NCBI GenBank assembly: GCA_035547315.1
Contig: DASZVH010000004.1
Location: forward strand, 12,107 to 76,106
Origin: Minisyncoccota bacterium
GTDB lineage: Bacteria; Patescibacteriota; Minisyncoccia; Phycocordibacterales; Phycocordibacteraceae
Direction of reading: 5' to 3'
Length of the DNA: 64,000 nt
Numbering within the stretch: the first letter of the stretch is position 1; every line of letters starts with the position of its first letter. The translations under genes were made by a program, and so were the position numbers. Positions 7,322-57,169 of the stretch are shown in pieces. The notes beneath the pieces were generated by a model. The model was not told the origin of the DNA. It made no database searches and worked only from the letters and a program-made list of their open reading frames with translations.

Positions 7322-7335
7322 AACCTGATCCCTAA

Positions 7336-8991
<1,656 letters not shown>

Positions 8992-11659: not shown

Positions 11660-11723
11660 CCCGCGAGGTTGTACACAGCGCGCGGCCGCTCCCGCGCGCC
11701 GCGCCTGTATACTGTCTAATGAA

Positions 11724-12389: not shown

Positions 12390-12928
12390 CCCGCCTTCTC
12401 CCGCTGATCCTTCTCGCCGCCGCCGCCGGTATCTTCTTCGGCTATGTGAGCCCGCAGTACGAGGGCCCGATCGCCGCGGCCAAGAGCACCATCGCCGCCG
12501 ACAACCAGGCGCTCGCCGCCGCCGCCGCCTATACCGCCAAGGAGAACCAGCTCGCCGCGGCGCGCGACCAGATCGCGCCGGACGATCTCGCGCGGCTCAC
12601 CGCGCTCCTGCCCACCTCGGTCAACAACGTCCAGGCTATCCTCGACCTCGACAACCTCGCGGTGCGTTCCGGCTTCCCGCTTGCCGCCATCAACGTGGTC
12701 TCGGGCGGCAGCGCGGGCACGGTGCAGGGCATCACGGAAGACCAGAGTGTCGGCTCGGTCGATCTCTCGATCTCCGGCAGCGGGAGCTATGCCGTCTTCC
12801 GCACCTTCCTCGCGGGGGTCGAGCGGAGCGTCCGCCTCCTCGATGTCCGCACGCTCTCGATCACGAGCGCGGACTCGGGCATCTACTCCTACTCCATGAC
12901 GCTGCGCCTCTACTGGCTCAAATCCTAA
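12386..12928 (+). CDS. pilO: type IV pilus assembly protein PilO-like
   Basis: N-terminal TM helix plus coiled coil. ATGA overlap with pilN. Confidence 0.45.
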   Translation: MTRLLPLILLAAAAGIFFGYVSPQYEGPIAAAKSTIAADNQALAAAAAYTAKENQLAAARDQIAPDDLARLTALLPTSVNNVQAILDLDNLAVRSGFPLAAINVVSGGSAGTVQGITEDQSVGSVDLSISGSGSYAVFRTFLAGVERSVRLLDVRTLSITSADSGIYSYSMTLRLYWLKS

Positions 12929-12932
12929 CGCC

Positions 12933-13232
12933 ATGAACCTCTTTTCCAAAGGCAACCTCAAGAACACGCTCGGCGCGGTCGGCGTGCTCGTGATCCTCGG
13001 CGTCCTCTATTGGTACTTCTTCGGCGGCTCCTCTACGCCCCCGCCGCCGGTCTCCGAGACGCTGCCGGCGAGCGACGCCGCACAGGAGTTCCTCGACCTG
13101 GCGGGCGAGCTCGCCACGGTCTCCTTCGACCCGACGATCTTCTCCGACCCGCGCTTTTCCTCGCTCGTCGACATCTCGACGGCGGTTATCCCCGAGGCCG
13201 AGGGCCGGCCCGACCCCTTCGCGCCGCTCTAA
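12933..13232 (+). CDS. small membrane-anchored pilus-operon protein (PilP-like?)
   Basis: 99 aa with an N-terminal TM helix and a Pro-rich linker. Placed by position in the operon. Confidence 0.3.
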   Translation: MNLFSKGNLKNTLGAVGVLVILGVLYWYFFGGSSTPPPPVSETLPASDAAQEFLDLAGELATVSFDPTIFSDPRFSSLVDISTAVIPEAEGRPDPFAPL

Positions 13233-13251
13233 GCCTCGGCGCGCTCTCCCG

Positions 13252-15006
<1,755 letters not shown>

Positions 15007-15008
15007 CC

Positions 15009-15410
15009 ATGGCCCGCATCTACCTCACCGACGACGACCGCTTCCTGCTCGATCTCTACGCGCTCAAGTTCAAGAACGCGGGGCACGACGTCTCCACCTT
15101 CTCCTCCGGCGAAGAGCTTATCGACGCCCTGGGGAAGAAGGGCGCGCCCGACGCGCTGCTGCTCGACGTCATCATGCCCGGGCTCTCGGGCTTCGAGACC
15201 CTGGAGAAGATCCGCCAGGAAAAGCTCGCCGGGAGCGCCAAGATAATCATCCTTACCAACCAGGCGCAGGGCGCCGATGTCGAGAAGGCAAAGAGCCTCG
15301 GGACCGCGGGCTATATCGTCAAGGCCTCCGCGATACCCTCCGAGGTCCTGGCCGAGACCGAGCGCATCCTCGCCGGCTCGAACGCCCCCTCCCTAATCCC
15401 CGCACCATGA
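15009..15410 (+). CDS. stand-alone response-regulator receiver domain (CheY/PilH-like)
   Basis: Receiver (REC) fold, DDD...D...T...K, 133 aa. Confidence 0.7.
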   Translation: MARIYLTDDDRFLLDLYALKFKNAGHDVSTFSSGEELIDALGKKGAPDALLLDVIMPGLSGFETLEKIRQEKLAGSAKIIILTNQAQGADVEKAKSLGTAGYIVKASAIPSEVLAETERILAGSNAPSLIPAP

Positions 15411-16465
15411 TCGACCCGGCTCTTTCCAAACTCTTCGACGCGCTCGTCTCCGAGAACGGCTCCGACCTCCACCTCTCGCCCGGCGTCCCGCCCATCATCC
15501 GGGTCTCGGGCTCTCTGCTGCCCCTGGTGCAGGAAGGCGTGCTCACGCCTGCCAAGACGGCCGCGATGCTCAAGTCCATAGCGCCGGAGAATCGCTGGGC
15601 CGACTTCGAGCATAATCAGACGCTCGACTTCTCCTACGCGCACGGCGAGGGCGCGCGGTTGCGCGTCAACGGCTATGTCGTCGGCGGCAGCGTGGTCGCC
15701 GCGATGCGGCTCATCCCGCGCGAGATACGCACCTTCGCCGAGCTCAACCTGCCGCCCGTGCTCGAGACCTTCGCGGGCCGCGAGCAGGGCTTTTTCCTCG
15801 CGGTGGGGCCGGTGGGGCAGGGCAAGTCGACCACGCTCGCCGCGATGATCGACCGCATCAACGAGAGCCGCGCCGAGCATATCCTTACGATCGAGGACCC
15901 CGTCGAGTACCTCTTCACTCCCAAGAAGTCGCTCATCCACCAGCGCGAGGTGCACGTGGACACGCCCTCGTTCTCCGCGGCGCTCGCCTCGGCCTTCCGC
16001 GAGGACGTAGACGTCATCATGGTCGGCGAGATGCGCGACTACGAGACCATCAGCAACGCGGTGACCGCCGCCGAGACCGGGCACTTGGTGCTCTCCACGC
16101 TCCACACCAACTCCGCCGCGCAGACCATCGACCGCATCATCGACATGTTCCCTGCCGAGCAGCAGGCGCAGGTGCGGGTGCAGCTCTCGGGATCGCTCGC
16201 GGGCATCTTCTCCCAGCGGCTCATCCCGCGCATCTCGGGCGGCCTCATCCCCGCGTATGAGCTCCTCATCAACAACAACGCGGTCGCCAACCTCATCCGC
16301 GCCTCCCGCACCCACGAGATCGCAGCGGTGGTGCAGACCAGCTCGCAAGAGGGGATGATCGACATGGACCGCTCCCTGGCCGAGCTCGTTCGCCGCGGCG
16401 AGGTGACCACCGAGGCCGCCTATGAGCACGCCAACGACCCCAAGACCTTCGAGCGCTACCTGTGA
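15407..16465 (+). CDS. pilT: twitching-motility ATPase PilT
   Basis: Internal start at ATG 15407 (ATGA overlap). Walker A GPVGQGKST and AIRNLIRE-like motifs. Confidence 0.9.
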   Translation: MIDPALSKLFDALVSENGSDLHLSPGVPPIIRVSGSLLPLVQEGVLTPAKTAAMLKSIAPENRWADFEHNQTLDFSYAHGEGARLRVNGYVVGGSVVAAMRLIPREIRTFAELNLPPVLETFAGREQGFFLAVGPVGQGKSTTLAAMIDRINESRAEHILTIEDPVEYLFTPKKSLIHQREVHVDTPSFSAALASAFREDVDVIMVGEMRDYETISNAVTAAETGHLVLSTLHTNSAAQTIDRIIDMFPAEQQAQVRVQLSGSLAGIFSQRLIPRISGGLIPAYELLINNNAVANLIRASRTHEIAAVVQTSSQEGMIDMDRSLAELVRRGEVTTEAAYEHANDPKTFERYL

Positions 16466-16520
16466 ACAGGCGTCAGGGATCAGGTTTCAGGTGTTAGGAT
16501 TAAGCTGACCCCTGACTCCT

Positions 16521-17729
16521 ATGTTATTCACCTACCGAGCGATCGACCAGGACGGCCACGAGCGCGAGGGCACCATCGAAGCGCTCTCGCAGGACGCGGC
16601 GGTCTCCGAGCTGCAGCGCCGCGCGCTGGTCATCACCGCCCTGAGCGAGGCCAAGGCCGCGGGCTCTATCCTCGAGCTCGAGATACCGCTCTTCGACAGA
16701 ATCAGCAACCGCGACATCGTCATCCTCTCGCGCCAGATCGCGACCCTTTTCGAGGCGCAGGTCAACGCGCTGCGAGTCTTCCGCCTGCTTGCGGCCGAGG
16801 TCGAGGGCAAGAGCTTGGCGCGCACGCTCTCGCAGGTCGCCGACGACCTGCAGGGCGGCAGCCCCATCAGCAAGGCGCTCGCCAAGCACCCCAAGGCCTT
16901 CAGCGCCTTCTACGTCAACATGGTCCGCGCCGGCGAGGAGAGCGGGAAGCTCTCGCAGACGTTCGGCTATCTCGCCGACTACCTCGACCGCACGTACGAC
17001 ATCATCTCCAAGGCGGAGAACGCGCTCATCTACCCGGCCTTCGTCATCGCGGTCTTTATCGGCGTGATGGCCCTCATGCTCACCGTCGTCATCCCCAAGA
17101 TCGCGGCGACCCTGCTCGACGCGGGGCAGCAGCTCCCGATCTACACCCGTATCGTCATCGGGGTCTCCGAATTCTTCGTCAACTACGGCTTCTTCGTCCT
17201 GCTCGCGCTCATCGCGCTCGGCTTCTATGTCTGGCGGCTTTCCAAGAGCTCCTCCGGCCGCGCGGTGCTCGATGGCGCGAAGCTCTCGGTGCCCTATATC
17301 GGCGACCTCTACAAGAAGCTCTATCTCGCGCGCATCGCGGACAACCTCTCGACCATGTTCGTCTCGGGCGTCGCGGTGGTCGAGGGCATCAGCATCACCG
17401 CCAACGTGGTCGAGAACGAAATCTACGCCGAGGCGCTCCGCGAGACCGCCGAGGCGGTCAGGGGCGGCTCCTCGATCTCGGAGGCGCTCGGCGCGCACCC
17501 GCAGATCCCGGGCATCATGGTCGCGATGGTCAAGGTGGGCGAGGAGACGGGCGAGCTCGGCAAGATCCTCGAGACGCTCGCCAAGTTCTACGAGCGCGAG
17601 GTCTCCAACGCGGTGGATACGCTGGTCGGCCTTATCGAGCCGGTGATGATCGTGCTCCTCGGCGCCGGCGTGGGCGTCTTGATCGCGGCGGTCCTCCTGC
17701 CGATCTACAACCTCGCCGGCGCCATCTAG
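16521..17729 (+). CDS. pilC: type IV pilus platform protein PilC (GspF family)
   Basis: Two T2SF repeats and 3-4 TM segments. Confidence 0.85.
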   Translation: MLFTYRAIDQDGHEREGTIEALSQDAAVSELQRRALVITALSEAKAAGSILELEIPLFDRISNRDIVILSRQIATLFEAQVNALRVFRLLAAEVEGKSLARTLSQVADDLQGGSPISKALAKHPKAFSAFYVNMVRAGEESGKLSQTFGYLADYLDRTYDIISKAENALIYPAFVIAVFIGVMALMLTVVIPKIAATLLDAGQQLPIYTRIVIGVSEFFVNYGFFVLLALIALGFYVWRLSKSSSGRAVLDGAKLSVPYIGDLYKKLYLARIADNLSTMFVSGVAVVEGISITANVVENEIYAEALRETAEAVRGGSSISEALGAHPQIPGIMVAMVKVGEETGELGKILETLAKFYEREVSNAVDTLVGLIEPVMIVLLGAGVGVLIAAVLLPIYNLAGAI

Positions 17730-17800
17730 TTATCCACAGATGGCGCGCGGTCGCGCCCAACACGGCGTATACTATCCCCATTAACCCCGATAATTTATTT

Positions 17801-18241
17801 ATGTACAAACTTCGCTCTCGCGGCTTTACGCTCATCGAGCTCCTCGTCGTGATCGCCATCATCGGCATCCTCTCGGCGGTCGTGCTCGCCTCGCTCTCCA
17901 CGGCCCGCACCAAAGGCCAAGATGCGGCTATCCAGTCCGACCTCAACTCGATCCAGACCGAGGCCGAGATTTACTACAACGGTACCGGCGCCAATACCTA
18001 TGGCAGCACCGTCGCCACATGTACGGGCGGCATGTTTGCTGGAGATACTTCTATCAAGAATGCACTCACGGGCATCGCAAGCAACAACGGCGGCTCGGGC
18101 AATCAAGCGTGCGATAGCAGCGGCCAAGCATACGCGGTAAAAGCGAAATCTGCCACCAACTCGAGCTCGGTGTTCTATTGCGTCGATTCGACCGGGTTCT
18201 CCGGCACGACGACCACCATGACTGCCGCTACGAATTGCTAA
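17801..18241 (+). CDS. pilA: type IV major pilin (class III signal peptide)
   Basis: MYKLRSRG|FTLIELLVVIAIIGIL prepilin motif. C-terminal Cys pair FYCVDSTG...C. A TATACT hexamer lies 28 nt upstream. Confidence 0.8.
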   Translation: MYKLRSRGFTLIELLVVIAIIGILSAVVLASLSTARTKGQDAAIQSDLNSIQTEAEIYYNGTGANTYGSTVATCTGGMFAGDTSIKNALTGIASNNGGSGNQACDSSGQAYAVKAKSATNSSSVFYCVDSTGFSGTTTTMTAATNC

Positions 18242-18278
18242 AGTACGCTAGAAACCGCTCATCGTCCGGATGAACGCG

Positions 18279-18311
18279 GAAAACGGCCCCGGAGGGGGCC
18301 GTTTTCCGTTT
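18279..18311 (+). terminator. rho-independent terminator after the first pilin
   Basis: GGCCCCggagGGGGCC followed by gttttccgttt. Confidence 0.7.
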
Positions 18312-18362
18312 CTCCACAGGCGCCGATTTCTCCGGCGATTCCCGTGCTAGAATTAATAAAGT

Positions 18363-18887
18363 ATGCGTACTTCATTCCAAAGAGGCTTCACCTTGATCGA
18401 GCTCCTCGTCGTCATTGCAATAATCGGTATCCTTTCGGCGGTCGTGCTCGCCTCGCTCAGTACCGCCCGCAGTAAGGGCAAGGACGCGGCCGCGATGCAG
18501 GCGCTCGAGGGCGCCCGCGCCCAGGCCGAGCTCTATTACTACGCCAACGGCAACAGCTACAATAACGTCTGCGGCCAGACCGCCGTCGGCGGGGTCAAGA
18601 CGGTCGGCGCTCAGGTGCTCTCCGCCGCGCGGGCCGAGGGCTATGCCTTCGACAATTCCGTCAACGGCTCCGGCGACTGGAACAATCACCAGGTAAACAA
18701 CACCAACAAGCCCGTAACCTGCAACGACAGCGGCCAGTCGAGCCCCAAGAACCCCAACGCCTGGGCGGCGGCTATCTATCTCTCCAACGGCACCTTCTTC
18801 TGCACCGACTCGACCGGGCTCGCGACCACGACCACGACCTCGGCCTATCAGATCACGGACAATCACGACAACGATTGCTCGCCCTAA
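18363..18887 (+). CDS. type IV pilin, second paralogue
   Basis: RG|FTLIELLVVIAIIGIL motif. C-terminal FFCTDSTG...DC disulfide loop. A TAGAAT hexamer lies ~10 nt upstream. Confidence 0.8.
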   Translation: MRTSFQRGFTLIELLVVIAIIGILSAVVLASLSTARSKGKDAAAMQALEGARAQAELYYYANGNSYNNVCGQTAVGGVKTVGAQVLSAARAEGYAFDNSVNGSGDWNNHQVNNTNKPVTCNDSGQSSPKNPNAWAAAIYLSNGTFFCTDSTGLATTTTTSAYQITDNHDNDCSP

Positions 18888-18896
18888 CGTCCCCGA

Positions 18897-19664
18897 ATGA
18901 CGCCCCTCCTCTGCGCGCTCTTCTTCTGCCTCGGGGCGCTCCTCGCGAGCTTTGCTGGACTCCTCGCCGCGCGCCTCTACACCGGAGAGCCGATCGCGGC
19001 CGGCCGCTCGCGCTGCGACGCGTGCGGCGCGGCTCTCTCGGCGCCCGCGCTCGTCCCGCTCGCCGGCTGGGCGCTCTCGGCCGGCCGCGCGCGCTGCTGC
19101 GGCGCGCGCATCTCCGCCGCCTCCGCCGTCGGCGAGCTCGCACTTGGAACCCTCTTCCTCTTCTCTTATCTCAAGCTCGGGCTCTCCTGGCCGCTCACGC
19201 TCCTGCTGCCGGCGCTCGTCCTCCTCTACGCGCTCGTGCGGTACGACCTCGCGCACCAGATATTGCCGCCCGTGCTGCTCGCTCCCTTGGGCGCGCTGTC
19301 GCTCGGCTACGCCGCGCTTGCCGCGCCCTCGGCCGCCGCATTCCTCTCCGCGCTCATCGTCGCCGCGGCGGAGGGCGTGCTGCTCCTCGCGCTCTCCCTT
19401 CTCTCCCGCGGGCGGCTGATGGGTCTCGCCGACGCGCCGCTGATCGCCGCGCTCGCGCTCGTGGCCGCCCCGCGCGCACTCGCGGGCTTTGCCTTCTCTT
19501 TCTGGATCGGCGCCCTCATCGGGATAATCCTCGTGCTCGCGGGGCGGGGAAGGGTTAGAATGAAGAGCGAGGTGCCGCTTGCCCCCTTCCTCGCCGCCGG
19601 CTTCCTCCTCGCTTATTTCATCCCATGGGACCCCTTCGCCGCGCTCATCGCCCTGATCGGCTAG
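18897..19664 (+). CDS. pilD: prepilin peptidase PilD (A24 family)
   Basis: N-terminal CDAC...CCGAR zinc-binding tetracysteine. Polytopic, with conserved Asp in MGLADAPL. Confidence 0.7.
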   Translation: MTPLLCALFFCLGALLASFAGLLAARLYTGEPIAAGRSRCDACGAALSAPALVPLAGWALSAGRARCCGARISAASAVGELALGTLFLFSYLKLGLSWPLTLLLPALVLLYALVRYDLAHQILPPVLLAPLGALSLGYAALAAPSAAAFLSALIVAAAEGVLLLALSLLSRGRLMGLADAPLIAALALVAAPRALAGFAFSFWIGALIGIILVLAGRGRVRMKSEVPLAPFLAAGFLLAYFIPWDPFAALIALIG

Positions 19665-20317
19665 CCGTCGCGCGCGCGCGCGGCTTCACGCTGATCGAGA
19701 TGCTCGTCTCGCTCGCCATCCTGACCATCATCGCGGTCATCGTGCTCACGAGCCATGCCTCCTTTACCAACTCGCTCATCGTGACCAACGCTGCCTACGA
19801 CGTCGCGCTCTCGCTGCGCCAGGCCGAAAGCTTCGGCGTCTCGAGCCGCAACTCCGGCGCCATCGCCAACGCCGGCTACGGCATCGACTTCTCCACCGCC
19901 AACCTCTCTTCCTATGTACTTTTCGTGGACAATCACCCAAACAACTGCGGCCCCGGCTCGCTCCCCAGCTGCAAGCCCGGTAACGGCGTCTATAACGCGG
20001 GCGCCGATGGCCTCGTCTCTACCTACACCATCAACGCGGGCATCGGCGTTTCCAAGCTCTGCGTCTACCGCGGCGGGAGCTCGTATTGCTCGGGCGGCGG
20101 GAGCAACCTCTTCGCGCTCGATATCGTCTTCACGCGCCCCAACACCGCCGCCAACATCGCTTTCCTCAAGAATGCCGCGCTCTATCCAGGCGACCAGGGC
20201 CCCGGCGACCCGCTCACGGGCGCCTGCATCACGCTCTCAACGCCCGACGGCACGAGCCAGCGCGGCATCTCCGTCTCTTCGGTGGGGCAGGTGAGCCCGG
20301 TCGCTTCCTGCCCATGA
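19625..20317 (+). CDS. minor pilin / pseudopilin
   Basis: ...ARARG|FTLIEMLVSLAIL motif. Long (20 aa) leader if ATG 19625 is the true start. Overlaps the pilD 3' end by 40 nt. Confidence 0.55.
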   Translation: MGPLRRAHRPDRLAVARARGFTLIEMLVSLAILTIIAVIVLTSHASFTNSLIVTNAAYDVALSLRQAESFGVSSRNSGAIANAGYGIDFSTANLSSYVLFVDNHPNNCGPGSLPSCKPGNGVYNAGADGLVSTYTINAGIGVSKLCVYRGGSSYCSGGGSNLFALDIVFTRPNTAANIAFLKNAALYPGDQGPGDPLTGACITLSTPDGTSQRGISVSSVGQVSPVASCP

Positions 20318-40179: not shown

Positions 40180-40746
40180 AATTGCGTGTTAGTGAGTAAA
40201 CACGGCGGGTACCACAAAACCCGCCACTAGGGTGGGGCTTGCGCCCCCATACCGGTTTCCCGATACGGCCAATCACGACGAGCCCTAATGACGGGTTTTC
40301 TGGTCGTGATTGGACTTCTGAACCATGCCAGCAACTCACGTCGCTGGTTTAGGCCCCGCTGCTTTCGCAGCTCTTTTATTCTACAGTGGTGGTTCCAGTC
40401 AAAGTGCCAGTATTGTCTTAAGGAAGGCCACCGAGTAATCGGCGGCCTTTATGCAACTTCGGCCATGCCGGTCCGGTACTATAAACATATGAATAAATTC
40501 ACTGACCTAGTGCTGATTATCGGCTTCTTAGCGGTCGACTTCCTCTTTTTCCATGACCTCTTTAAGGCGGGGGAGATAATTACCTTGCCGCAGTACCTTA
40601 CCGGCCTTCTCTCGATTATCGTGATCCTCCGCGCGCTCTGGTCGCTCTTTGGCGCTGAGTCCGCCGCGCGCCTCGCGTAACTCTTCCCCAACATCCGCTC
40701 ATAGCGCCCCGCGTGCGGGGCACTGCGAGCTATACTAGAGAGCACG

Positions 40747-41079
40747 ATGAACATCGGGCAGCAGCACATCCATGCGAGGCGGCGACTCTTCAAACATCTT
40801 GAGCCGTTCCCCTCCAAGCACTTTGGCAAGCGCATCCTCGACTACGTTATCTATGTTGCTGCGATCGCGCAGCCTCTTGCGCTTGTCCCGCAAGCGCTCC
40901 TGGTGCTTGACGACGGCAGCGCCTCGGGCGCCTCTCCGCTTACCTGGGGCCTTCTTGGCATTATCGGCATCATGTGGGTCTTCTACGGCATCGTGCATAA
41001 AGAGAAGCCGATTGTCCTCTCCAACACGCTCTCGGTTGTGCTCGACTTCACGATCGTCTACGGAATCCTCCGCCACTAG
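40747..41079 (+). CDS. SemiSWEET / PQ-loop sugar transporter family protein
   Basis: AIAQPLALVPQALLV (PQ motif) and WVFYGIVHKEKPIVLSNTLSVVLDFTIVYGIL match the three-TM SemiSWEET pattern. An N-terminal extension is possible. Confidence 0.55.
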   Translation: MNIGQQHIHARRRLFKHLEPFPSKHFGKRILDYVIYVAAIAQPLALVPQALLVLDDGSASGASPLTWGLLGIIGIMWVFYGIVHKEKPIVLSNTLSVVLDFTIVYGILRH

Positions 41080-41137
41080 CGAGAGGGCGCGCGTGCATGT
41101 TAGTATCGCTTTTGCGCCGATCTAGCGCACATTTGTT

Positions 41138-41210
41138 GCCGATGTAGCTCAGTTGGTAGAGCAGCTCCATGGTAAGGAGCAGGTCGCCAGTTCGATCCTG
41201 GCCATCGGCT
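41138..41210 (+). tRNA. tRNA-Thr (GGT)
   Basis: Anticodon loop ATGGTAA, T-loop TTCGATC and acceptor GCCGATG/CATCGGC. Confidence 0.85.
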
Positions 41211-41235
41211 CACGAGTAAGGTATAAAAATCGTAC

Positions 41236-41308
41236 GCCGGAGTAGCTCAGTTGGTAGAGCGAGGGTATCGTAAACCCTAGGTCGTCGGTTCAATCCCGAC
41301 CTCCGGCT
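41236..41308 (+). tRNA. tRNA-Thr (CGT)
   Basis: Anticodon loop ATCGTAA, T-loop TTCAATC and acceptor GCCGGAG/CTCCGGC. Confidence 0.85.
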
Positions 41309-41309
41309 C

Positions 41310-42173
41310 ATGGAGAAAGAGGCGCGACTGGCGGAATTGGAAGCGGCGATGGCCTCGCCGGAGTTCTGGAATGATAAAGAGGAGGCGCAAAAGCTCGTGC
41401 GCGAATATCAGCAGCTCAAGGAGGGCGCGGGCGGCGGGCACGAGGGCGGCGGCGCGACCTTGGCGATACTTGCGGGCGCGGGCGGCGACGACGCGGAGGA
41501 CTTCGCCGCGATGCTCGCCAAGATGTACAAAGGCTACGCGGCCGCAAAAGGCTGGAGCTTGAAGCAGCTCGACGACACGCCCTCCTCGGCTGGGTACCGC
41601 AGCGTGCTTTTTGAGATAACCGGAGCGGGGGCGTACAGCCGGTTGAAGCACGAGGCCGGCGTCCACCGGCTGGTGCGCATCTCGCCTTTCAACGCGCAGG
41701 GGAAGCGGCAGACAAGCTTCGCGCTCGTGGAGGTGCTCCCCATACTCGCGCCCTCCGAGAAGATAGAGCTGAAGCCGGAGGAGCTCGACATACAATTCGC
41801 CAAAGCCGGCGGCGCGGGCGGCCAGAACGTTAATAAAAGAGAGACAGCGGTGCGCATCGTCCACAAGCCGACCAATATTTCGGTACATGTCTCCTCGGAG
41901 AGAAGCCAGGCGGCGAACAAGGAGAAAGCGCACGAGCTCCTCGCTGCGAAATTATTTGCGCAGCAGGAGGAAGAGGCGAAGGCCCTCAAGGAGGGGCGCA
42001 GCATCGCCAAGACGACCGCCAACGAGTGGGGCAGCCAGATCCGCTCCTATGTCCTCCACCCCTATAAAATGGTCAAGGATCACCGCACCGGCCACGAGTC
42101 CGGCAACCCCGAGAAGGTCCTCGCCGGCGACCTCGATGGCTTCATCGACGCCGCTGCGGCAGAGCGGGTATAA
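41310..42173 (+). CDS. prfB: peptide chain release factor 2 with truncated domain 1, no programmed frameshift
   Basis: SPF tripeptide and GGQ (AGGAGGQNVNK) motifs. Only 287 aa. The ATG lies 2 nt after tRNA-Thr. The domain-1 helical bundle is reduced to ~EGAGGGHE. Confidence 0.8.
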   Translation: MEKEARLAELEAAMASPEFWNDKEEAQKLVREYQQLKEGAGGGHEGGGATLAILAGAGGDDAEDFAAMLAKMYKGYAAAKGWSLKQLDDTPSSAGYRSVLFEITGAGAYSRLKHEAGVHRLVRISPFNAQGKRQTSFALVEVLPILAPSEKIELKPEELDIQFAKAGGAGGQNVNKRETAVRIVHKPTNISVHVSSERSQAANKEKAHELLAAKLFAQQEEEAKALKEGRSIAKTTANEWGSQIRSYVLHPYKMVKDHRTGHESGNPEKVLAGDLDGFIDAAAAERV

Positions 42174-42317
42174 TCAAGACACGATGGAGACCCGGATCGT
42201 CAATGGTCGCATTACGCTCGATTTGAAGCCCGCGCTCGGCAACCGCTCGCGCGGCGTGGAGGATGCCGCGATTCGGGAGAAGATCCGCTCGATCGTGGCG
42301 AAGGTAGTCGCATAGCT

Positions 42318-42629
42318 ATGGCGGTCTCGCGCGAACGATGGTCGGCGATGACGCTCGAGGAGCAGCTCGGCAATATCGGGAGCGAGGTCGGCCGTGCGGC
42401 GAAGTGGCAGGGGAAAGACGACGCGGCATTCTGGGGCGCGGTCACACGCGCGCTCGAGCTTCTCTGCCTCACGCAGCTTGACGCGCGCTGGCGCGCGCGC
42501 CGCGCGGAGCTCAATCGCGCGCAGGAGGCCTTTTGCGACGCCGTCCTCGGCGGCGCGCACTATCGGAGCACGCTCCCGGATCTCGAACGGTATTACGCGC
42601 AATTCGCGCTCCTTGCGCGCGCGCACTAA
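42318..42629 (+). CDS. hypothetical protein
   Basis: 103 aa helical ORF. A 43 aa ORF (42184-42315) lies immediately upstream. Confidence 0.3.
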   Translation: MAVSRERWSAMTLEEQLGNIGSEVGRAAKWQGKDDAAFWGAVTRALELLCLTQLDARWRARRAELNRAQEAFCDAVLGGAHYRSTLPDLERYYAQFALLARAH

Positions 42630-49846: not shown

Positions 49847-49920
49847 TGCCGGGTCGTCTAATGGTAGGACAACAGACTCTGGATCTGTTTATCTTGGTTC
49901 GAGTCCAAGCCCGGCAGCCA
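49847..49920 (+). tRNA. tRNA-Gln (CTG) with encoded CCA
   Basis: Acceptor TGCCGGG/CCCGGCA, anticodon loop CTCTGGA, T-loop TTCGAGT. Preceded by a 9 bp perfect palindrome (GCGCCACGC/GCGTGGCGC). Confidence 0.85.
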
Positions 49921-49994
49921 ATCAGGACATCGTACGGATGACCTAGAGGGGTCAATTCCTTTACTAAACCTTCTGGACATGTTTGCATTTAGCT

Positions 49995-51047
49995 ATGAAG
50001 GAGAAATCTCTGCCTAAACCGAATACGCAGGCCCTAAGTTGGTTTTATGGTGAGAGCAAGAAAGGGAATCTTATACTTGATCCCAAGTACCAAAGGAATC
50101 CGATTTGGTCCATTGGCCAGAAGTGTTTTCTGATAGATAGCTTGATTTCCGGGTCGCCCATTCCACAGGTCTTTATTAACATTAAAACAAAGACTGTTAG
50201 TAAAGTCCGACAAACCGACTATGAAGTAGTTGATGGACAACAACGGCTGCGCGCGATTTTGGAGTTCATGGAAGATCAGTACCCTTTAATCAAAACAACT
50301 GCCAAGTCCTACCCCGTTTCCGGCATCTATGCGCCACACATTGGCAAAAAATATTCCGAGTTACCCTCCGAATTACAGGATGCGATTTGGAACTATCCTC
50401 TTGCTGTTCAAGAGTTACGAGATTGGACGGATGTCGAAATAAGAGCCCTTTTTAGACGGCTCAATTATGTTGTAGAAAAATTGAACAAACAGGAATTACG
50501 CCACTCTCAGTACTTTGGTGAATTTGTTATTGCGGCAGAAGAGTTAAGCAAGGATCCTTTTTGGGATGAAATTGATTTCTTTTCCCGCCATGATTCGCAA
50601 CGAATGAAAGACGTGGAATTTGTTAGCGAGCTGCTCGTCCTTCTCATGGATGGCCCCCAAGAAGGGCAGTCTACTCTGGATAGATTTTATGCTGATTACG
50701 ATGTTCTTTTTCCGAAGAAAAAGAATTATCTGTCAAAATTTCATCAAACCCTCCGCTCCTTAAAATCAATAGAGACGTACCTGGCCAGCAGTCGCTTTGT
50801 AAAGAAAGCGGACTTTTACGCTCTATTTGGGGCTGTGTCGAGTTTAAATGAGCTTGTCAAACAAGCAGTCAACCTTTCTTACGCTGAGAACGAGCTAAGC
50901 AAATTTGAAAATCAACTTTCAAAATCTCCCGAAAGTCTGACGGGAAAAGTATTGAAATATTACAATACTGTCATCGAAGGTCCTGCAAAGAAAGCTAAAC
51001 GGGAAGAGCGCATCAAAATACTTTCAGGCTTGGTAGCTAAAGATTGA
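49995..51047 (+). CDS. DUF262 (ParB-like nuclease domain, DGQQR motif) protein
   Basis: YQRNPIWS...VVDGQQRLRAI signature of the DUF262/GmrSD N-terminal domain. ATG at 49995 (the track starts at TTG 49983). Confidence 0.75.
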   Translation: MKEKSLPKPNTQALSWFYGESKKGNLILDPKYQRNPIWSIGQKCFLIDSLISGSPIPQVFINIKTKTVSKVRQTDYEVVDGQQRLRAILEFMEDQYPLIKTTAKSYPVSGIYAPHIGKKYSELPSELQDAIWNYPLAVQELRDWTDVEIRALFRRLNYVVEKLNKQELRHSQYFGEFVIAAEELSKDPFWDEIDFFSRHDSQRMKDVEFVSELLVLLMDGPQEGQSTLDRFYADYDVLFPKKKNYLSKFHQTLRSLKSIETYLASSRFVKKADFYALFGAVSSLNELVKQAVNLSYAENELSKFENQLSKSPESLTGKVLKYYNTVIEGPAKKAKREERIKILSGLVAKD

Positions 51048-51742
51048 AATGGATGGCAACTACTACGGCAAAAAAAGTTGTCAACAAATTTACCAGCCGG
51101 CTCACTAAGGTTGGAGGATACTACGGCGAGCTGATATTAGCCGTTAACTTAAAGAGGCATCAGGCAGCTTTAGAGACTATGTTGGCTGAACAGTTCGTAT
51201 TCAATATTGTGGTGTTTTGGGAGGTGTTTCTTAACGAACTTCTGCTCACTTATCTTGTTGCGTCTCCAAAAAGGTTTCTTTCCAATCTCAAAGACAGGAT
51301 GGGCCAGTCTGTAAAAGAGCGATATGGAGGCGGGGCTGCCCAAATGCTCAAATTTAATTCTCCTAGATCAATCTCACTGGCAAAGGCCGCTGCACTTGCT
51401 GACCCAAAAGATTTTAATCTAACCGCAGAGTCTGCTGATCAGCTTACGAAACGAGCCAATGACTTGCTCGAAGCGAAATTCGCTAAACCCTTTACCCTAG
51501 ATCCCGATGATGCTCAATTTTTGGATTATTTGGTTTGTCTTAGAAATTTTCTTGCACACAGAAGTACATCTTCTAGAAATAAATTGAGAATAGCAGTGTC
51601 TGCACTCCAAAATTCGAACAACGATCTGAACGGCTCCATTTCAAACATAGGAACTTATCTGAAGACCACTAACACGTCAAACAAGACCCGAGCCTTGATA
51701 ATTTCAGAGCGTATGGTCCAAATAGCAAATAAGCTGGTTTAA
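51044..51742 (+). CDS. HEPN-like protein (RNxxAH motif)
   Basis: LVCLRNFLAHRS fits the Rx4-6H HEPN motif. ATGA overlap with the DUF262 gene. Confidence 0.45.
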   Translation: MKWMATTTAKKVVNKFTSRLTKVGGYYGELILAVNLKRHQAALETMLAEQFVFNIVVFWEVFLNELLLTYLVASPKRFLSNLKDRMGQSVKERYGGGAAQMLKFNSPRSISLAKAAALADPKDFNLTAESADQLTKRANDLLEAKFAKPFTLDPDDAQFLDYLVCLRNFLAHRSTSSRNKLRIAVSALQNSNNDLNGSISNIGTYLKTTNTSNKTRALIISERMVQIANKLV

Positions 51743-53079
51743 GAGTCCAGTATGACTTTTTTGTTTATGAGTGTAAGCCGGCTTCTAAATGACTGCATTA
51801 ACTCTCGCTTCTCCTCCAGTGAACCCTCCTTAAGAAGGTACTTCGCATAAGATCGTAAATCTGTTTTGCTCTGAGCATCGATTTGGTCTGCGCCGATGCC
51901 GAGCACTTTATTGCGGAAGTGATTGAAGCGCCCCATTTCTTTCTCAAGCTTCTGTTTAATGCCGAGAGTATTGAGATCCAACTTATCCACGATCTCTAAA
52001 AGCTGAGCAATCAACTCTTCTTCCCGTAGGTATGTGTTCTTGCAATTCTTGTCATAGAACCTCGTGCAGCCGTAGTAGATATACTTTGCTGTAGTCCCAT
52101 CCGCCAGACCCTTGAACTTCTCTTCAGCTGTTACACCGGAATTGCACAATCCGCATTTCATCAAGCGTGTGAAGGCGAATTCTTTGTACATCTGGCCATG
52201 TGGTTTGTGCGAGTCCAATTTTTCCTGAACCTTCTTGTAAAGTTCTTGGCTGATCAAAGGCTCGTGCCGGCCCACGTACCACTTGCCACTTTTCTTTGGG
52301 TACTCAATGAGACCACAGTAGAACGGGTTACGTAAGACCGTATGGATATTGCTCAACGAGAAGGGCTTCCCATTTCGAGTTTGAAACTTCACCTCGTCCT
52401 TTAACCACCGAAAGAGGCGTCTGCCACTCCACTTTTCGTAGGCAACCTTTTCGAACATCAATCGGATAATGTGAGCCCGCTGCGGATCGAGAACAACGTG
52501 GCATTTCATTGTTCGATCCGGATGGTTGATATAGCCAGTGGGCGCTACGCTCGGCCATAGGCCCATTTCGATGCGGGTGCGGAGACCGCGCTTCACGTTC
52601 ATGCTCTTGTTGTCGTTCTCGAGCTTCGCTTGCGAGCACAGGATCATCAGCAAGAATTTCTCACTGGGATTGTTTGTAAATTTCTGGCCGTATGTCCTCA
52701 CCTCAACTAGTTTTTTCTGGTCCATCAAGTCAACGATCGAGCCAAGATCGCCGGCGTTTCTTGAAAGGCGATCCGGATGCCATGCGAGTATGGCGTTGAA
52801 CTTGCCCTCCTTCAGTTCACGGATAAGCTCATTAAAAACTGGTCGTTGGGCAGTGTCCTTGGCCGAGTGAGATTCGCGCTTTATTTCGCTCACAGTCAAC
52901 CCGTCTCTCTGGGCGAGAGTCAGCATCTCTTTTATTTGGGAGTCTATCGAGAGTGCCTGCTTTTCGTCGGATTCGGTCGATTTTCGTGCATACAGGCAGT
53001 ATTTAAGGGGAACGACCTCTACAGGCGCTTGGGCGCCCGTTTGGCCTGCGTATAGTCCCACTTCCGGCATACAGCACAC
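51739..53079 (-). CDS. large serine recombinase (resolvase N-domain + recombinase domain + Zn ribbon)
   Basis: YARKSTESDEKQALSIDSQ catalytic region, DRLSRN motif and a C-terminal CGLCNSG...YYGC...C zinc ribbon. Exact start uncertain. Confidence 0.85.
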   Translation of the reverse strand: MCCMPEVGLYAGQTGAQAPVEVVPLKYCLYARKSTESDEKQALSIDSQIKEMLTLAQRDGLTVSEIKRESHSAKDTAQRPVFNELIRELKEGKFNAILAWHPDRLSRNAGDLGSIVDLMDQKKLVEVRTYGQKFTNNPSEKFLLMILCSQAKLENDNKSMNVKRGLRTRIEMGLWPSVAPTGYINHPDRTMKCHVVLDPQRAHIIRLMFEKVAYEKWSGRRLFRWLKDEVKFQTRNGKPFSLSNIHTVLRNPFYCGLIEYPKKSGKWYVGRHEPLISQELYKKVQEKLDSHKPHGQMYKEFAFTRLMKCGLCNSGVTAEEKFKGLADGTTAKYIYYGCTRFYDKNCKNTYLREEELIAQLLEIVDKLDLNTLGIKQKLEKEMGRFNHFRNKVLGIGADQIDAQSKTDLRSYAKYLLKEGSLEEKRELMQSFRSRLTLINKKVILDS

Positions 53080-53185
53080 ATACAGCCCGGAAGCCGTTCA
53101 GAAGTCTAGTGCCCTGAAAGGGGATAACTACACCCCACTTATCTCGCAATAGCCATAGAGACCGATTTGCGATAGTCTTGGATTA

Positions 53186-54049
53186 ATGCCTAAGAAGAAA
53201 AGGACTAGGAGACTGCGTGGAAGTGATTTCTTGATGAGATGGTCTCAGGGAGCATGGAGCGAGGACCAACTCGTGGATGCAGTAAACGCGACCCAAAAGT
53301 TTTTTGCGTTGCCGTATGGTCCTAGCGGTACAGCGCCAGACGATGATCCGGTGGCCTATGAGAAATACTTTGAAAGATTAGACGCAGCCGGTCTTGGTTC
53401 GATCAAGCGACCAGACCTCCTTATTTTCCCGGAGTCGGCTCGCAGCAAGGTTAATAGTATGGTTGAGCCTCTTGGTGGTGTCGCGGAACTGCCTTTTCAC
53501 ACGGAAGATGAGGAGCACATAAAAGCACTCCTTTCTTTGGCAATCATGGCAGTCGAATGCGAGAACAGCTTATGGAAGGCGAAACAGATGCCGAACTACA
53601 CCTACACCCTCAAGCCACAGAAGAGGCTTGGAGGTAAGCCCGGTTTAGCTAAAAATGCAGTGCTTCCTACGATCATCATGAAAGACGAGGATAGAGGCCC
53701 GCTCACAGAATGGCAAAAACGAAATCCGAAACTCCCGCTCCATATTTGGCATGCGTTTTTTGACGAAGCATACGGCATTTCGTTTGCCGATATGAATCGG
53801 CTTATTGACGATGGGACCATCGAGCCTTCTGTTCAAGAGTTTTCAAACGCAGGACAGCCCTCGACAAAGAAAACTCTATACAAAGCGCATTATTACCTTG
53901 GCTATCCGCTCGCGACCTCAACGCAGGACCCGGCGCTAAAAGCTCAAACTATAGTGGATAAGAATGGCCACATTTACCCTTACGTTACCTTCTCTGGAGG
54001 CAAGATGGCTCTCCGGGATGATGCTGTGAGGGTTTTGGAGAGTCTGTAG
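53186..54049 (+). CDS. hypothetical protein, candidate restriction endonuclease
   Basis: 287 aa with no family match. Lies 20 nt upstream of, and co-oriented with, the methyltransferase. Contains PD...E.K-like residues (RPDLLIFPE...ECENSLWKAK). Confidence 0.3.
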   Translation: MPKKKRTRRLRGSDFLMRWSQGAWSEDQLVDAVNATQKFFALPYGPSGTAPDDDPVAYEKYFERLDAAGLGSIKRPDLLIFPESARSKVNSMVEPLGGVAELPFHTEDEEHIKALLSLAIMAVECENSLWKAKQMPNYTYTLKPQKRLGGKPGLAKNAVLPTIIMKDEDRGPLTEWQKRNPKLPLHIWHAFFDEAYGISFADMNRLIDDGTIEPSVQEFSNAGQPSTKKTLYKAHYYLGYPLATSTQDPALKAQTIVDKNGHIYPYVTFSGGKMALRDDAVRVLESL

Positions 54050-54069
54050 GAGGAAGGTAAAATAAAGGG

Positions 54070-55566
54070 GTGAAAACCCGAGAACAATTAAGAGAGAAGG
54101 GACAATTCTGGACGCCGAACTGGATAGCTCAGAGCATGGTTAGTTATGCTTTGGGGAATGGCTCGAATCAACTTTTTGATCCCGCTCATGGGCTTGGTGC
54201 GTTTTTTGTCGCAGCAAAGGAACTGAGCAAGAAGTTTAAAAGAAGAATAACCTTCTTTGGTACTGACATAGACTCTGATCTAGTGTCTGAAATTAAAGAA
54301 CAAGGGATTCTTGAAGCCAAGGATTTAAAGAATCTACGAGTTGCTGACTTTGTAGATATTGCTTCCCAAAAGAAATACAAGTCCATAGTCGTAAATCCTC
54401 CATATATCCGCCATCACCGCATTCCTCTTGAAAAGAAACTGGCTCTGAAGAGAATCGCTCTACAACATCTTGGTCGTGAATTAGATGGCAGAGCAGGCCT
54501 CCATGTGTACTTTTTAATACTAAGTCTACTTGCACTTGAAAAAGACGGAAGGTTATCTTTCATTGTTTCCTCTGATATATGCGAAGGGGTATTTGCGAAT
54601 CCACTTTGGCAGTGGATCGGAAAGAACTATCAAATAGAAGCAGTTCTGACTTTCAGTGGTAAAGCTAGTCCATTTCCGGGTGTAGATACAAACCCAATTA
54701 TTTTCTTCATTAGAAACGCAAAACCAAAAGCAGTTCTTTCGTGGGCTCGAGCGAATGGAATAAATCCCGAGTCTATCAATAAATGGGTTGATTCTGGTTT
54801 TAAAACATCTCTAGCGGATGGATCAGATTTATTAGTGTTTGAACGTTCACTGAATGAGGCGCTTACCACGGGCCTTTCTCGACTTCCACAGACCGAAGAA
54901 CACAAATTCACTCTAGGAGATTTTGTGTATGCGATGCGAGGCATTGCTACTGGGAATAATGAATTCTTTTTGCTGGATCAAGAGACCGTTGATAGATTCG
55001 GAATTCCTCAAACGTATTTAGTTCCAGCAATTGCTCGAACACGAGATGTCGCAGGAGATATGGTTGATGAGTCTACTTTTACAGCTATTGTCGAAAAAGG
55101 AAGACCACATTACCTACTTTATATTGATGCTGACAGCCTAGATGGCCTTCCAAAACCGATAAGAAATTATATTGCCCACGGAGAAGAACTTGGAGTACAC
55201 AAGACCGCACTAATCTCTGCCCGAAGGGTCTGGTTCAAAATGGAAAAAAGAAATCCACCGCCGATCCTTTTTGCCTACTTAGGAAGGAGAAGTTCAAGAT
55301 TTATCGTCAACAAAGCCGGAGCGCTGCCTCTCAATGGTTTTCTCTGCATCTATCCTAAGGACACTGAAGCATCATACTTAAATAAACTAATACAGATAAT
55401 TAATCGCGAAGAGGTATTAAAGAACCTGTTCCTGGTCGGCAAATCATACGGATCCGATGCAGTAAAAGTAGAGCCTCGTGCGATAGAGCGATTGCCCATT
55501 CCGGAGAAGCTTCTCAAGGAAGTAGGACTTATACCCCCTAGGAAGGGTCAGCTAGCTTTAGTTTGA
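54070..55566 (+). CDS. N6-adenine DNA methyltransferase (gamma-class, Eco57I/TaqI-like) with C-terminal target-recognition domain
   Basis: GQFWTP N-terminus, motif I FDPAHGLGAFF and motif IV VVNPPY. 498 aa. Confidence 0.8.
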   Translation: MKTREQLREKGQFWTPNWIAQSMVSYALGNGSNQLFDPAHGLGAFFVAAKELSKKFKRRITFFGTDIDSDLVSEIKEQGILEAKDLKNLRVADFVDIASQKKYKSIVVNPPYIRHHRIPLEKKLALKRIALQHLGRELDGRAGLHVYFLILSLLALEKDGRLSFIVSSDICEGVFANPLWQWIGKNYQIEAVLTFSGKASPFPGVDTNPIIFFIRNAKPKAVLSWARANGINPESINKWVDSGFKTSLADGSDLLVFERSLNEALTTGLSRLPQTEEHKFTLGDFVYAMRGIATGNNEFFLLDQETVDRFGIPQTYLVPAIARTRDVAGDMVDESTFTAIVEKGRPHYLLYIDADSLDGLPKPIRNYIAHGEELGVHKTALISARRVWFKMEKRNPPPILFAYLGRRSSRFIVNKAGALPLNGFLCIYPKDTEASYLNKLIQIINREEVLKNLFLVGKSYGSDAVKVEPRAIERLPIPEKLLKEVGLIPPRKGQLALV

Positions 55567-55567
55567 T

Positions 55568-55822
55568 TTAGAGAAAATAGCCAACGCTTTTACTGTAGAG
55601 CTTTGCGAGTTTATTGAGCCAGATGGCCTCTACTCGCAATTCTCCAAGTTCGATTTTTGAAACCCAGGACTGGGAGCACCCGAGCTTTTCAGCCACCTCT
55701 GCCTGTGTCAGCCCGGCTTCTATCCGAGCTTTCTTTAGCCGCTTCACAAACCCAGCTCGTTCATCGGTATGAATAGATTTCTTCATACCTATAAGGCTGT
55801 ATTCCGTTATGGGATATTCCAA
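55568..55822 (-). CDS. XRE-family helix-turn-helix transcriptional regulator
   Basis: LTQAEVAEKLGCSQSWVSKIELGE Cro/C1-type HTH. Could be the controller of the adjacent restriction-modification genes or the island repressor. Confidence 0.7.
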   Translation of the reverse strand: MEYPITEYSLIGMKKSIHTDERAGFVKRLKKARIEAGLTQAEVAEKLGCSQSWVSKIELGELRVEAIWLNKLAKLYSKSVGYFL

Positions 55823-55937
55823 AGTGGAATATTTATGCTACGATAGGGCCACTTAGTCCATAAGGGGACAACCGACTACGAGGAAGTCCAGGACGAAGGT
55901 AAGTTATAGAAGTTTTATTTATAAGATAACGAAATAT

Positions 55938-56228
55938 ATGGCTCGTAAACCAAAGCCTCAGTGCCCAAATTGTAAGCAGTACAGGTTGGACGAAAAGCGT
56001 GGTATCTGGCTGCTACTCGCATCAGGGTGCTTTTTCGGTCCGCTCATGGTCGCCAGTGTCTTGTTTATTACAATCATCGGTATCCCGATTGCCTTGTTCT
56101 TTCTGGGTCTCTACATCATCACGATCCCACTCGGCATTATTGCTATAATCGTGGCGTTTCGTACTCACGGCTACCGGTGTAGAAATTGCCACTGGGTTGG
56201 CGATAACCCAATCATTGAATCGGCATGA
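55938..56228 (+). CDS. small membrane protein with split zinc ribbon (CPNC ... CRNC)
   Basis: 96 aa with two TM helices flanked by CxxC pairs. Confidence 0.4.
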   Translation: MARKPKPQCPNCKQYRLDEKRGIWLLLASGCFFGPLMVASVLFITIIGIPIALFFLGLYIITIPLGIIAIIVAFRTHGYRCRNCHWVGDNPIIESA

Positions 56229-56340
56229 GGCATGGCAATTCTGTCGTCACAAAGCGCTCGTGAGCTTCAAAGAATAATCAAAGAGGCTACGGAGCGCGAT
56301 GTGTCGCTCGGAGAAGCCTATGCGATTTGGGGATACCTAA

Positions 56341-57060
56341 TCAAACTCCTGCAGTTGTTGTGGAAGGTAGAACACCGCGATGAGGTACCCATACCGCCAC
56401 AACAGATGTCATTGTTTGGTCGGTTCGGAAACGCAAGTGCGGATCACAGGAGTCGTAAAAGATATTCTCGGAGTTAGGGATAGAGAATGCTTCTTTGGTT
56501 TTGCCTTCTCGATCCCATCGTTCTTTAAATTCAAGCAAGGTCTCTTCTGGGTCCGTGGGATGTTCGAGTTCGTGCATTTCTTTCAGCTCCCTATTTTCAT
56601 TCTTGACTTTAGCAAGCAGGTCAACGATATCTCTGAGGTGGAAAAGGCCCTCGGTTTGTTCCGGTTCAGGAAGATTGAGTACCAGAAAACGGATATCGTT
56701 CGGGTGAAGAAGGAGCCGAGGTTTCTCAACCTCCTGTTCTTTTGGAAAATTATGAAAATACTGCAGCCACAACTTCTGGCTTGCCGAATTACCTTGCACC
56801 GCACTACGCAAAATACTTTCAATTACGAAGCTGGTCTTTTCGAAAGCCCACTCTTTTCGTAAGGCTGTCACGCGAGACTGGAAGTCGGAGCGTTTTTTCC
56901 AGGCAGTTGGCGTGTTAATGCTGATTCCGTAGTATTCAGAAAATTGCTGCTGGGTTTCAATCCCGAGCCGGTGACGCTCGGAAGGGGGCATGGAGGTCCA
57001 GAGGATAAACTCCTCATAGACGCCATCTTTTTTCACACCTCGATTTTCACGGTTGTTCAT
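56341..57060 (-). CDS. hypothetical phage-like protein (N-terminal HTH, terminase-small-subunit-like)
   Basis: ETQQQFSEYYGISINTPTAWKKR resembles terS/Nu1-type HTH segments. 239 aa, low GC. Confidence 0.3.
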   Translation of the reverse strand: MNNRENRGVKKDGVYEEFILWTSMPPSERHRLGIETQQQFSEYYGISINTPTAWKKRSDFQSRVTALRKEWAFEKTSFVIESILRSAVQGNSASQKLWLQYFHNFPKEQEVEKPRLLLHPNDIRFLVLNLPEPEQTEGLFHLRDIVDLLAKVKNENRELKEMHELEHPTDPEETLLEFKERWDREGKTKEAFSIPNSENIFYDSCDPHLRFRTDQTMTSVVAVWVPHRGVLPSTTTAGV

Positions 57061-57169
57061 GGTTGTGATCTGCTTAATCCCTTGAGAATCGCTTGGGATT
57101 AAGCGGTATCTTCAATATTACTCCCGGAAATACCTGTTGTGAGGCCCTCTCTCTGTGGACCAACGAAAA

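Follow-up and report, generated by a model that had tools for sequence, protein, structure and literature searches.

A naturally minimised release factor RF2 in Paceibacteria, with a predicted near-leaderless message released from a tRNA-Thr 3' end

The 64,000-nucleotide stretch of contig DASZVH010000004.1 analysed here (the window) contains a prfB gene, encoding peptide chain release factor RF2, that is too short to hold the usual N-terminal domain 1 and that begins directly behind a pair of tRNA-Thr genes. The locus raises two questions: whether so short a protein is still a housekeeping termination factor, and how its messenger RNA obtains a 5' end when almost no sequence separates the start codon from a tRNA. 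The answer that we favour, with a probability of roughly 0.7, is that the gene encodes the housekeeping class-I release factor RF2 of Paceibacteria (Parcubacteria, candidate phyla radiation [CPR]), secondarily minimised, and that it is translated from a leaderless or near-leaderless mRNA freed by tRNA 3' processing.

Profile and structure searches place the protein with RF2 rather than with RF1, PrfH or ArfB. The NCBIfam prfB model TIGR00020 gives 328.6 bits, far more than the RF1 models (214-216 bits), PrfH (TIGR03072; 99.3 bits, cut-off 166.65) or ArfB (45 bits, cut-off 100). This score lies below the curated cut-off of 370, and hence below the threshold for full-length equivalogs, because profile positions ~1-115 are mostly unmatched. 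Pfam detects both PCRF, covered mainly at profile positions 101-194, and RF-1 (PF00472, E = 3.5e-34). In a phmmer search of Protein Data Bank (PDB) sequences the top matches are all RF2, with E values down to 2.7e-70, and the identity to solved RF2 structures is 34-45% (Foldseek alignments; HMMER). The AlphaFold model (predicted local distance difference test [pLDDT] 76) best matches the closed RF2 structure 1gqe, with a template modelling (TM) score of 0.76, and comprises an N-terminal helical hairpin (residues 2-15 and 23-38), a disordered Gly-rich linker and normal domains 2-4. Both the decoding superdomain with its SPF tripeptide (residues 125-127) and the catalytic domain with its GGQ motif (residues 170-172) are complete. 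The initial annotation of this locus had described a minimalised RF2 of 287 residues with SPF and GGQ intact, and on all of these points our analysis agrees with it. The open reading frame (ORF) has normal codon bias, with a G+C content at third codon positions (GC3) of 0.82, and an identical protein, encoded on a 143-kb contig, is deposited at NCBI under the title 'PCRF domain-containing protein [Candidatus Paceibacterota bacterium]'.

One local motif differs from that of canonical RF1 and RF2. The tip of helix α5, which reads the first stop-codon base in canonical RF1 and RF2, carries the motif GG(T/D)E-A in those proteins and GGDD-A in the window protein (41484-41495, residues 59-62, GDDA), where D60 and D61 are invariant in 38 close relatives. 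GGDD-A is also found in the closest full-length relatives (P0124 and P0138), so that the motif is not tied to the deletion of domain 1.

The losses in domain 1 can be placed by residue correspondence. In the phmmer matches to the PDB, residues 2-38 of the window protein correspond to RF2 residues 28-64 and residues 40-282 to residues 118-360 of Bacillus subtilis RF2, so that ~27 N-terminal and ~53 internal residues are absent; domain 1 retains 38 of its ~105 residues, and ~80 of the ~365 residues of RF2 are gone overall. In the model of the full-length relative P0130 (347 residues, pLDDT 92), α1 spans residues 2-23, α2 residues 25-39, the FW turn residues 42-46, α3 residues 48-80 and α4 residues 86-103. 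Up to residue 38, residue n of the window protein aligns with P0130 residue n+25 (alignment A2), which means that the window protein opens at the start of α2, which it retains, runs through the FW turn and then has the first 16 residues of α3, the proximal half of that helix. On this model, the deletions comprise helix α1 and, further on, everything from the middle of α3 to the end of α4, the intervening turn included. No part of domain 1 is better conserved than the retained stub. Three of its residues (W20, A26 and L36) do not vary even when canonical RF2 is included (A2), and ten (R6, E11, F19, W20, K23, A26, E32, Y33, L36 and K37) are invariant in the 38 close relatives. The pLDDT is 80-87 across the stub and falls below 50 at residues 39-42, and the FW-to-GxGG distance is 37 residues, as against 85-89 in canonical RF2. 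The alignment with RF2 of other lineages, which the initial annotation had proposed, thus places two deletions and finds SPF and GGQ invariant, and it alters two of the earlier statements. The start had been set ~13 residues too far into the protein, at E. coli residue ~41 with ~40 N-terminal residues missing; M1 corresponds to residue ~27-28, with ~27 missing. Most of domain 1 is indeed lost, but it is not replaced wholesale by ~EGAGGGHE, since a 38-residue helical hairpin is conserved and the Gly-rich linker replaces the distal coil only.

The same architecture recurs widely. All of the 120 best protein clusters (71-100% identity) are 273-306 residues long, and the 62 best loci among GTDB species representatives (L001-L062) are all of the short form and share both deletions; their labels include Kaiser-, Campbell-, Lloyd-, Vogel-, Nomura-, Zambryski-, Yonath- and Taylorbacteria, Paceibacterota and similar names. 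The distance from FW to GxGG(D/E) is 37-45 residues in these 62 loci and 85-89 in the next-best canonical loci (Melainabacteria and others). When the library is clustered at 50% identity, ~8 of the best 150 representatives are short. Throughout a large clade, then, the short form is a fixed character.

The N-terminal deletion also bears on regulation. A programmed +1 frameshift (CUU UGA C) is common but not universal in RF2 genes and is thus not strictly defining. The initial annotation had reported no such site, and we likewise find no CTTTGA on the forward strand between 40405 and 46799 and no shift site at the expected place in any of the 63 short loci, whereas 14 of the 18 canonical loci have one. 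Full-length relatives nearest to the window protein (47-49% identity) show the clade hallmarks GKYD…GAGGDDA and document the ancestral arrangement. In L083 (P0124), a 23-codon ORF0, preceded at 7 nt from its ATG by a TGcTATTAT box, ends in CGT CTT TGA C, the canonical +1 shift site; in L087 (P0126), tRNA-Thr(CGU) is followed by ORF0 and CTT TGA C; and in L084 (P0130, whose cluster includes Wolfebacteria fragments) a full-length in-frame gene has its ATG 4 nt after tRNA-Thr(CGU). The order prfB-ftsE-ftsX is found in full-length L083 and L088 (P0129) as it is in the window. The deletions therefore came after both the frameshift and the linkage of tRNA-Thr(CGU) to prfB. M1 of the window protein aligns 2-3 codons 3' of the ancestral shift site, so that what the N-terminal truncation took away is ORF0, which encodes helix α1, and the shift site with it. 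The autoregulatory frameshift is thus lost in the window gene, not hidden: an upstream frameshifted N-terminal segment, which the initial annotation had thought might speak against a minimised protein, is present in the closest full-length relatives (L083, L087) and has been lost here. In L083 itself (3949-4021), no obvious Shine-Dalgarno (SD)-like stimulator is seen 5' of the shift site (...GCATCGGACCGT CTT TGA C), and the full-length prfB appears to be leaderless, which raises the question of frameshift efficiency in an SD-poor lineage.

The signals in front of genes in this genome provide the setting for the second question. Among the window genes picked by codon-usage score, an SD-like motif precedes 5 of 47, and 15 of 46 have a -10-like hexamer, in many cases preceded by TG, whose end is no more than 14 nt from the start codon (6-10 nt in 13 of them), compared with 4.9% of control positions. 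Boxes of the TGnTAnnnT type stand before the starts at, e.g., 10574, 26701, 34026, 37651 (reverse strand) and 46742. Positions so near to start codons would be the signature of leaderless transcripts and imply that leaderless initiation is widespread in this Paceibacteria lineage. The prfB loci of the clade show the same tendency. Among the 63 short loci, 32 have a -10-like box 4-11 nt upstream, 12 start no more than 12 nt from the 3' end of a tRNA-Thr, and none was classed as SD-like. With a strict definition of the box (at least five of the six TATAAT positions, ending 5-9 nt upstream), it is present in 19 of the 51 short loci without an adjacent tRNA, as against 3.1% of random ATGs (p = 5e-16). 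The nearest same-strand tRNA upstream of prfB is a tRNA-Thr in 44 of 62 related loci, with anticodon CGU in 38 and GGU in 6. The gap between the tRNA end given by ARAGORN and the ATG is 0 in the window, L023 and L036, in all three of which GGCTC runs directly into ATGG, and 1-10 nt in the other tRNA-adjoining loci. Given where the -10 box lies in relatives, the tRNA 3' end sits where the transcription start sits in those relatives.

In the window, the start codon lies immediately behind a tRNA. The ARAGORN drawing of tRNA-Thr(CGU) shows a 7-bp acceptor stem, discriminator U41308 and then C41309, so that the start placed 2 nt after the last tRNA base by the initial annotation is correct, with one base in between. 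There is no SD motif, and no alternative ATG, GTG or TTG occurs from the upstream in-frame stop to 41310. A single base leaves no room for a separate prfB promoter, and co-transcription with the two tRNA-Thr genes, as proposed earlier, appears nearly forced. A promoter for prfB inside the tRNA was considered and rejected, as no TAnnnT box lies at a suitable distance. In six of the seven window tRNA genes no CCA is encoded. By what is established of bacterial tRNA maturation, genes of this kind need an endonuclease of the RNase Z type to cut behind the discriminator, with CCA then added, and their 3' ends should arise in this way. We propose that one transcript would start upstream of tRNA-Thr(GGU) and run through both tRNAs into prfB, and that an RNase Z-type cut at tRNA-Thr(CGU) would leave an mRNA beginning C-AUG. 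In a genome that would initiate routinely on leaderless mRNAs, the tRNA 3' end could substitute for a transcription start site. Excision of the tRNA probably creates the 5' end of the prfB message. Upstream of prfB in three related loci, other ORFs of 227, 84 and 128 residues begin no more than 3 nt behind a tRNA-Thr gene (L035 2072-2144, L042 36-111 and L050 628-700), which suggests that the tRNA-Thr 3' end may be a general launch site for leaderless ORFs. To the widest form of the proposal we give even odds: that a large class of bacteria makes this essential factor as an RF2 devoid of both the arm to the uL11/bL12 stalk and RF3 and the frameshift autoregulation, and makes it by 'tRNA punctuation', the 3' cut of tRNA-Thr(CGU) providing the 5' end of a leaderless prfB mRNA and tying RF2 supply to tRNA transcription.

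The alternative that survives best, although we consider it unlikely, is that the tRNA is no launch site at all: translation would begin at Met14 (ATG at 41349), or internally and independently of an SD sequence on the unprocessed precursor, and the adjacency would reflect compaction. Genome compaction is typical of CPR, and some database entries (P0021, P0024, P0026 and P0029) do begin at the Met before ASPEFW. However, residues 2-13 are conserved as protein, with R6 and E11 invariant within a [RK][IL]xE[IL]E pattern, and hence are translated, while the position of Met14 is a conserved hydrophobic one in full-length RF2. Relatives without an adjacent tRNA have their strong -10 box 5-9 nt before the same upstream ATG, so that the tRNA 3' end takes the position of a transcription start, and an AUG abutting a folded acceptor stem would be expected to be a poor substrate for the 30S subunit.

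How such a protein would work on the ribosome can be predicted from published work on domain 1. Codon recognition and peptide release proceed without this domain, and stimulation of RF3 requires it (PMC1586002, citing Mora 2003); the C-terminal domain of bL12 bridges domain I of RF1 to uL11 (PMC6076264); and RF2 dissociates spontaneously from the ribosome, RF3 being absent from several phyla (PMC6742477). Given this dispensability and self-dissociation, the short RF2 should decode UGA and UAA normally and recycle without help from RF3 or the stalk. It would thus terminate at UGA and UAA like any RF2, with peptide release predicted at both codons, would dispense with the coiled coil by which full-length RF2 extends to the uL11/bL12 stalk and stimulates RF3, and would leave by spontaneous dissociation. 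All three stop codons end well-conserved genes of the window, with UAG ending groEL, pilM, pilC and ftsX; an RF2 function is therefore needed, and RF1 is expected elsewhere in the genome.

Several points weigh against the reading that we favour. We infer the transcript, the cleavage site and the 5' end alike, the promoter at 41098-41106 is a candidate proposed on a sequence match, and a one-base leader is not strictly leaderless. RF1, RF3, uL11, bL12, RNase Z and a CCA-adding enzyme were not found within the ~84 kb of this genome that was covered, i.e., the window and ~20 kb added at its ends by exact-protein look-up, the added part containing no translation factors. Thermus lacks RF3 yet has a full domain 1 (PMC6742477; Thermus RF2 is among the PDB matches), so that loss of RF3 alone does not explain the deletion.

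With ~84 kb covered, a second, full-length prfB could also lie elsewhere, and the short protein would then be a specialised paralogue, for instance a rescue factor like PrfH. Natural class-I release factor homologues without domain 1, such as PrfH and ArfB, do exist (PMC1586002). We nevertheless regard a paralogue as improbable: SPF and the whole decoding superdomain are canonical, the PrfH model scores well under its cut-off, the prfB-ftsE-ftsX synteny and the position behind tRNA-Thr(CGU) are common to full-length relatives, and the relatives' genomes, at ~0.7-1 Mb, leave little room for paralogues. By tblastn there is one release factor gene in the window, and beyond prfB there is none in the flanks (±3 kb) of the 80 related loci first fetched. 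Still less probable, in our estimate, is that the short RF2 is the sole class-I factor and omnipotent, reading UAG as well after a loss of RF1. The use of UAG as a real stop, the lack of an RF1 gene in the part inspected and the GGDD motif of the clade at the α5 tip might be read in this way, but that part is a minority of the genome, SPF and its surroundings are canonical for RF2, full-length relatives share GGDD, and nothing points to a loss of RF1. A pseudogene, or an error of assembly or sequencing that truncated domain 1, might be suspected from the sub-threshold RF2 score and the noncommittal NCBI title, but the breadth of conservation refutes this. The two deletions recur in 62 independent genomes at species level and in the 120 best clusters, which come from many samples and pipelines; the remnant hairpin has invariant residues, and the ORF is intact and normally biased in codon use. 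The sequencing error considered by the initial annotation is thus ruled out, in agreement with the identical NCBI protein. The housekeeping RF2 of a large clade is thus the reading that we retain.

Among known systems, canonical RF2 (prfB; TIGR00020; E. coli 1GQE, B. subtilis 6SZS/9FY1) has the same decoding superdomain with SPF, GGQ domain, C-terminal region and prfB-ftsE-ftsX neighbourhood. In contrast, the window protein is without α1, the distal half of α3 and α4, its gene has neither ORF0 nor CTT-TGA-C, and its score is below the family cut-off. Engineered domain 1 deletions of E. coli RF1 and RF2 (Mora et al. 2003, per PMC1586002 and PMC6076264) are likewise class-I factors without the N-terminal coiled coil; they still recognise stop codons and release peptide, so the architecture can work. 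Those constructs grow slowly in vivo, whereas the window form is natural, fixed in its clade and provided with a conserved 38-residue stub. PrfH (RFH) and ArfB also keep GGQ and have no N-terminal helical domain. PrfH, however, is without SPF, is paired with RtcB2 and rescues damaged ribosomes, while the window protein keeps SPF and its gene has tRNA genes, small ORFs and ftsE/ftsX as neighbours and no RtcB; ArfB consists of the GGQ domain and a tail only, while the window protein keeps the decoding superdomain. The predicted mode of expression resembles mitochondrial tRNA punctuation with leaderless mRNAs, in which a tRNA similarly abuts the start codon and the ribosome works without SD pairing; the present case, with its predicted processing, concerns one conserved tRNA-Thr site, not the whole genome, in a bacterial lineage that is free-living or episymbiotic. 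In the thrU-tyrU-glyT-thrT-tufB operon of E. coli, a translation-factor gene is also co-transcribed 3' of tRNA genes that include a tRNA-Thr, but tufB is set off from them by ~100 nt and has an SD site of its own, whereas the spacer before the window prfB is one base. Full-text literature searches returned no account of leaderless or tRNA-launched genes in CPR/Patescibacteria, nor of a truncated RF2 there, and the passages that a term search retrieved from a broad survey of release-factor evolution do not mention the short form (PMC6514570).

Table 1 Features of the tRNA-Thr-prfB locus (window positions).
Feature	Position	Strand	Basis and remarks
Candidate extended -10 promoter TGtTAGTAT for the tRNA-Thr/tRNA-Thr/prfB transcript	41098-41106	+	Sequence match
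Short hairpin (5-bp stem) and T-rich run	41113-41129	+	Terminator-like match
tRNA-Thr, anticodon GGU	41138-41210 (Rfam) / 41211 (ARAGORN)	+	No encoded CCA; Rfam 67.5 bits
tRNA-Thr, anticodon CGU	41236-41308 (Rfam) / 41309 (ARAGORN)	+	Discriminator U41308; no encoded CCA; Rfam 67.5 bits
Single base C between tRNA discriminator and AUG	41309	+	ARAGORN, Rfam; sole 5' leader if the cut falls behind the discriminator
prfB, short form, 287 aa; stop TAA 42171-42173	41310-42173	+	Uninterrupted ORF; Pfam, NCBIfam and PDB matches
Domain 1 remnant, residues 1-38 (helix 2-15, SPEFW turn, helix 23-38)	41310-41423	+	AlphaFold2 (AF2) model, P0130 model, alignment A2
Gly-rich linker, residues 39-48 (GAGGGHEGGG)	41424-41453	+	PDB matches, A2; takes the place of ~50 residues of full-length RF2
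SPF codons (S125, P126, F127), RF2 stop-codon-reading tripeptide	41682-41690	+	Invariant in alignments A1 and A2
GGQ codons (G170, G171, Q172), catalytic motif	41817-41825	+	Invariant in alignments A1 and A2
Promoter-like site TCGACG, 18 nt, TATAAT; overlaps prfB stop codon	42145-42174	+	Promoter scan, 10/12 matches

The signals flanking the two genes are collected with the other features in Table 1. The candidate -10 element upstream of tRNA-Thr(GGU) shares the TGnTAnnnT form of the boxes that lie 6-10 nt 5' of many window start codons; a strict consensus promoter scan did not pick it up. The hairpin behind it might be either the terminator of the upstream gene (40747-41079) or a piece of the pre-tRNA 5' leader. 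Within the 24-nt spacer between the tRNA-Thr genes, a TATAAA hexamer (41221-41226) ends 9 nt 5' of tRNA-Thr(CGU) and could be a second promoter, with transcription starting near the mature 5' end of that tRNA. A below-threshold Rfam scan of 40500-42600 returned the two tRNAs only, plus a chance YrlA match. At the other end of prfB, the promoter-like site over the stop codon lies 10 nt before the ATG of a 43-residue ORF (42184-42315), which has a weak, sub-threshold match to the C-terminus of DUF5674 and may be a gene remnant.

Elsewhere in the window, the region 49847-57100 has a lower GC3 (0.42-0.60, versus 0.75-0.95 elsewhere) and directly follows tRNA-Gln(CUG), the sole window tRNA gene with an encoded CCA. 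Judging from its sequence, we take a 446-residue ORF of this region (51739-53079, reverse strand) for a serine recombinase. The region also encodes an AccI-like restriction enzyme (53186-54049) along with an Eco57I-type methyltransferase (54070-55566), and it has the look of an integrated element that carries a restriction-modification system. Pfam labels an RNase J gene (2470-4401, reverse strand) and groES-groEL (6977-8991). From the translations, we take 10574-20317 to be a type IV pilus cluster with pilM/N/O, pilB, pilC, several pilins and a prepilin-peptidase-like membrane protein. Together, RNase J, groES-groEL and such a pilus set would be typical of the Parcubacteria inventory.

CPR proteins are shorter in general (PMC9297842), and this broader trend may lie behind the short RF2. 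Domain 1 has been called non-essential on the strength of engineered truncations, and its actual role, whether in stalk contact, bL12 delivery or coupling to RF3, is debated. A natural, clade-wide RF2 with a 38-residue stub amounts to an evolutionary experiment on this point, in which α2, the FW turn and the proximal part of α3 would be indispensable and the rest would not, and the protein can be taken as it is into assays of release and recycling and into cryo-electron microscopy. Annotation pipelines give an essential prfB the title 'PCRF domain-containing protein', which could distort inferences about the completeness and the genetic code of CPR genomes. In the same lineage, the prfB +1 frameshift can be seen being lost through removal of ORF0, and, if processing occurs as predicted, the locus would be a conserved example, in bacteria, of a tRNA 3' end standing in for the transcription start of a leaderless mRNA.

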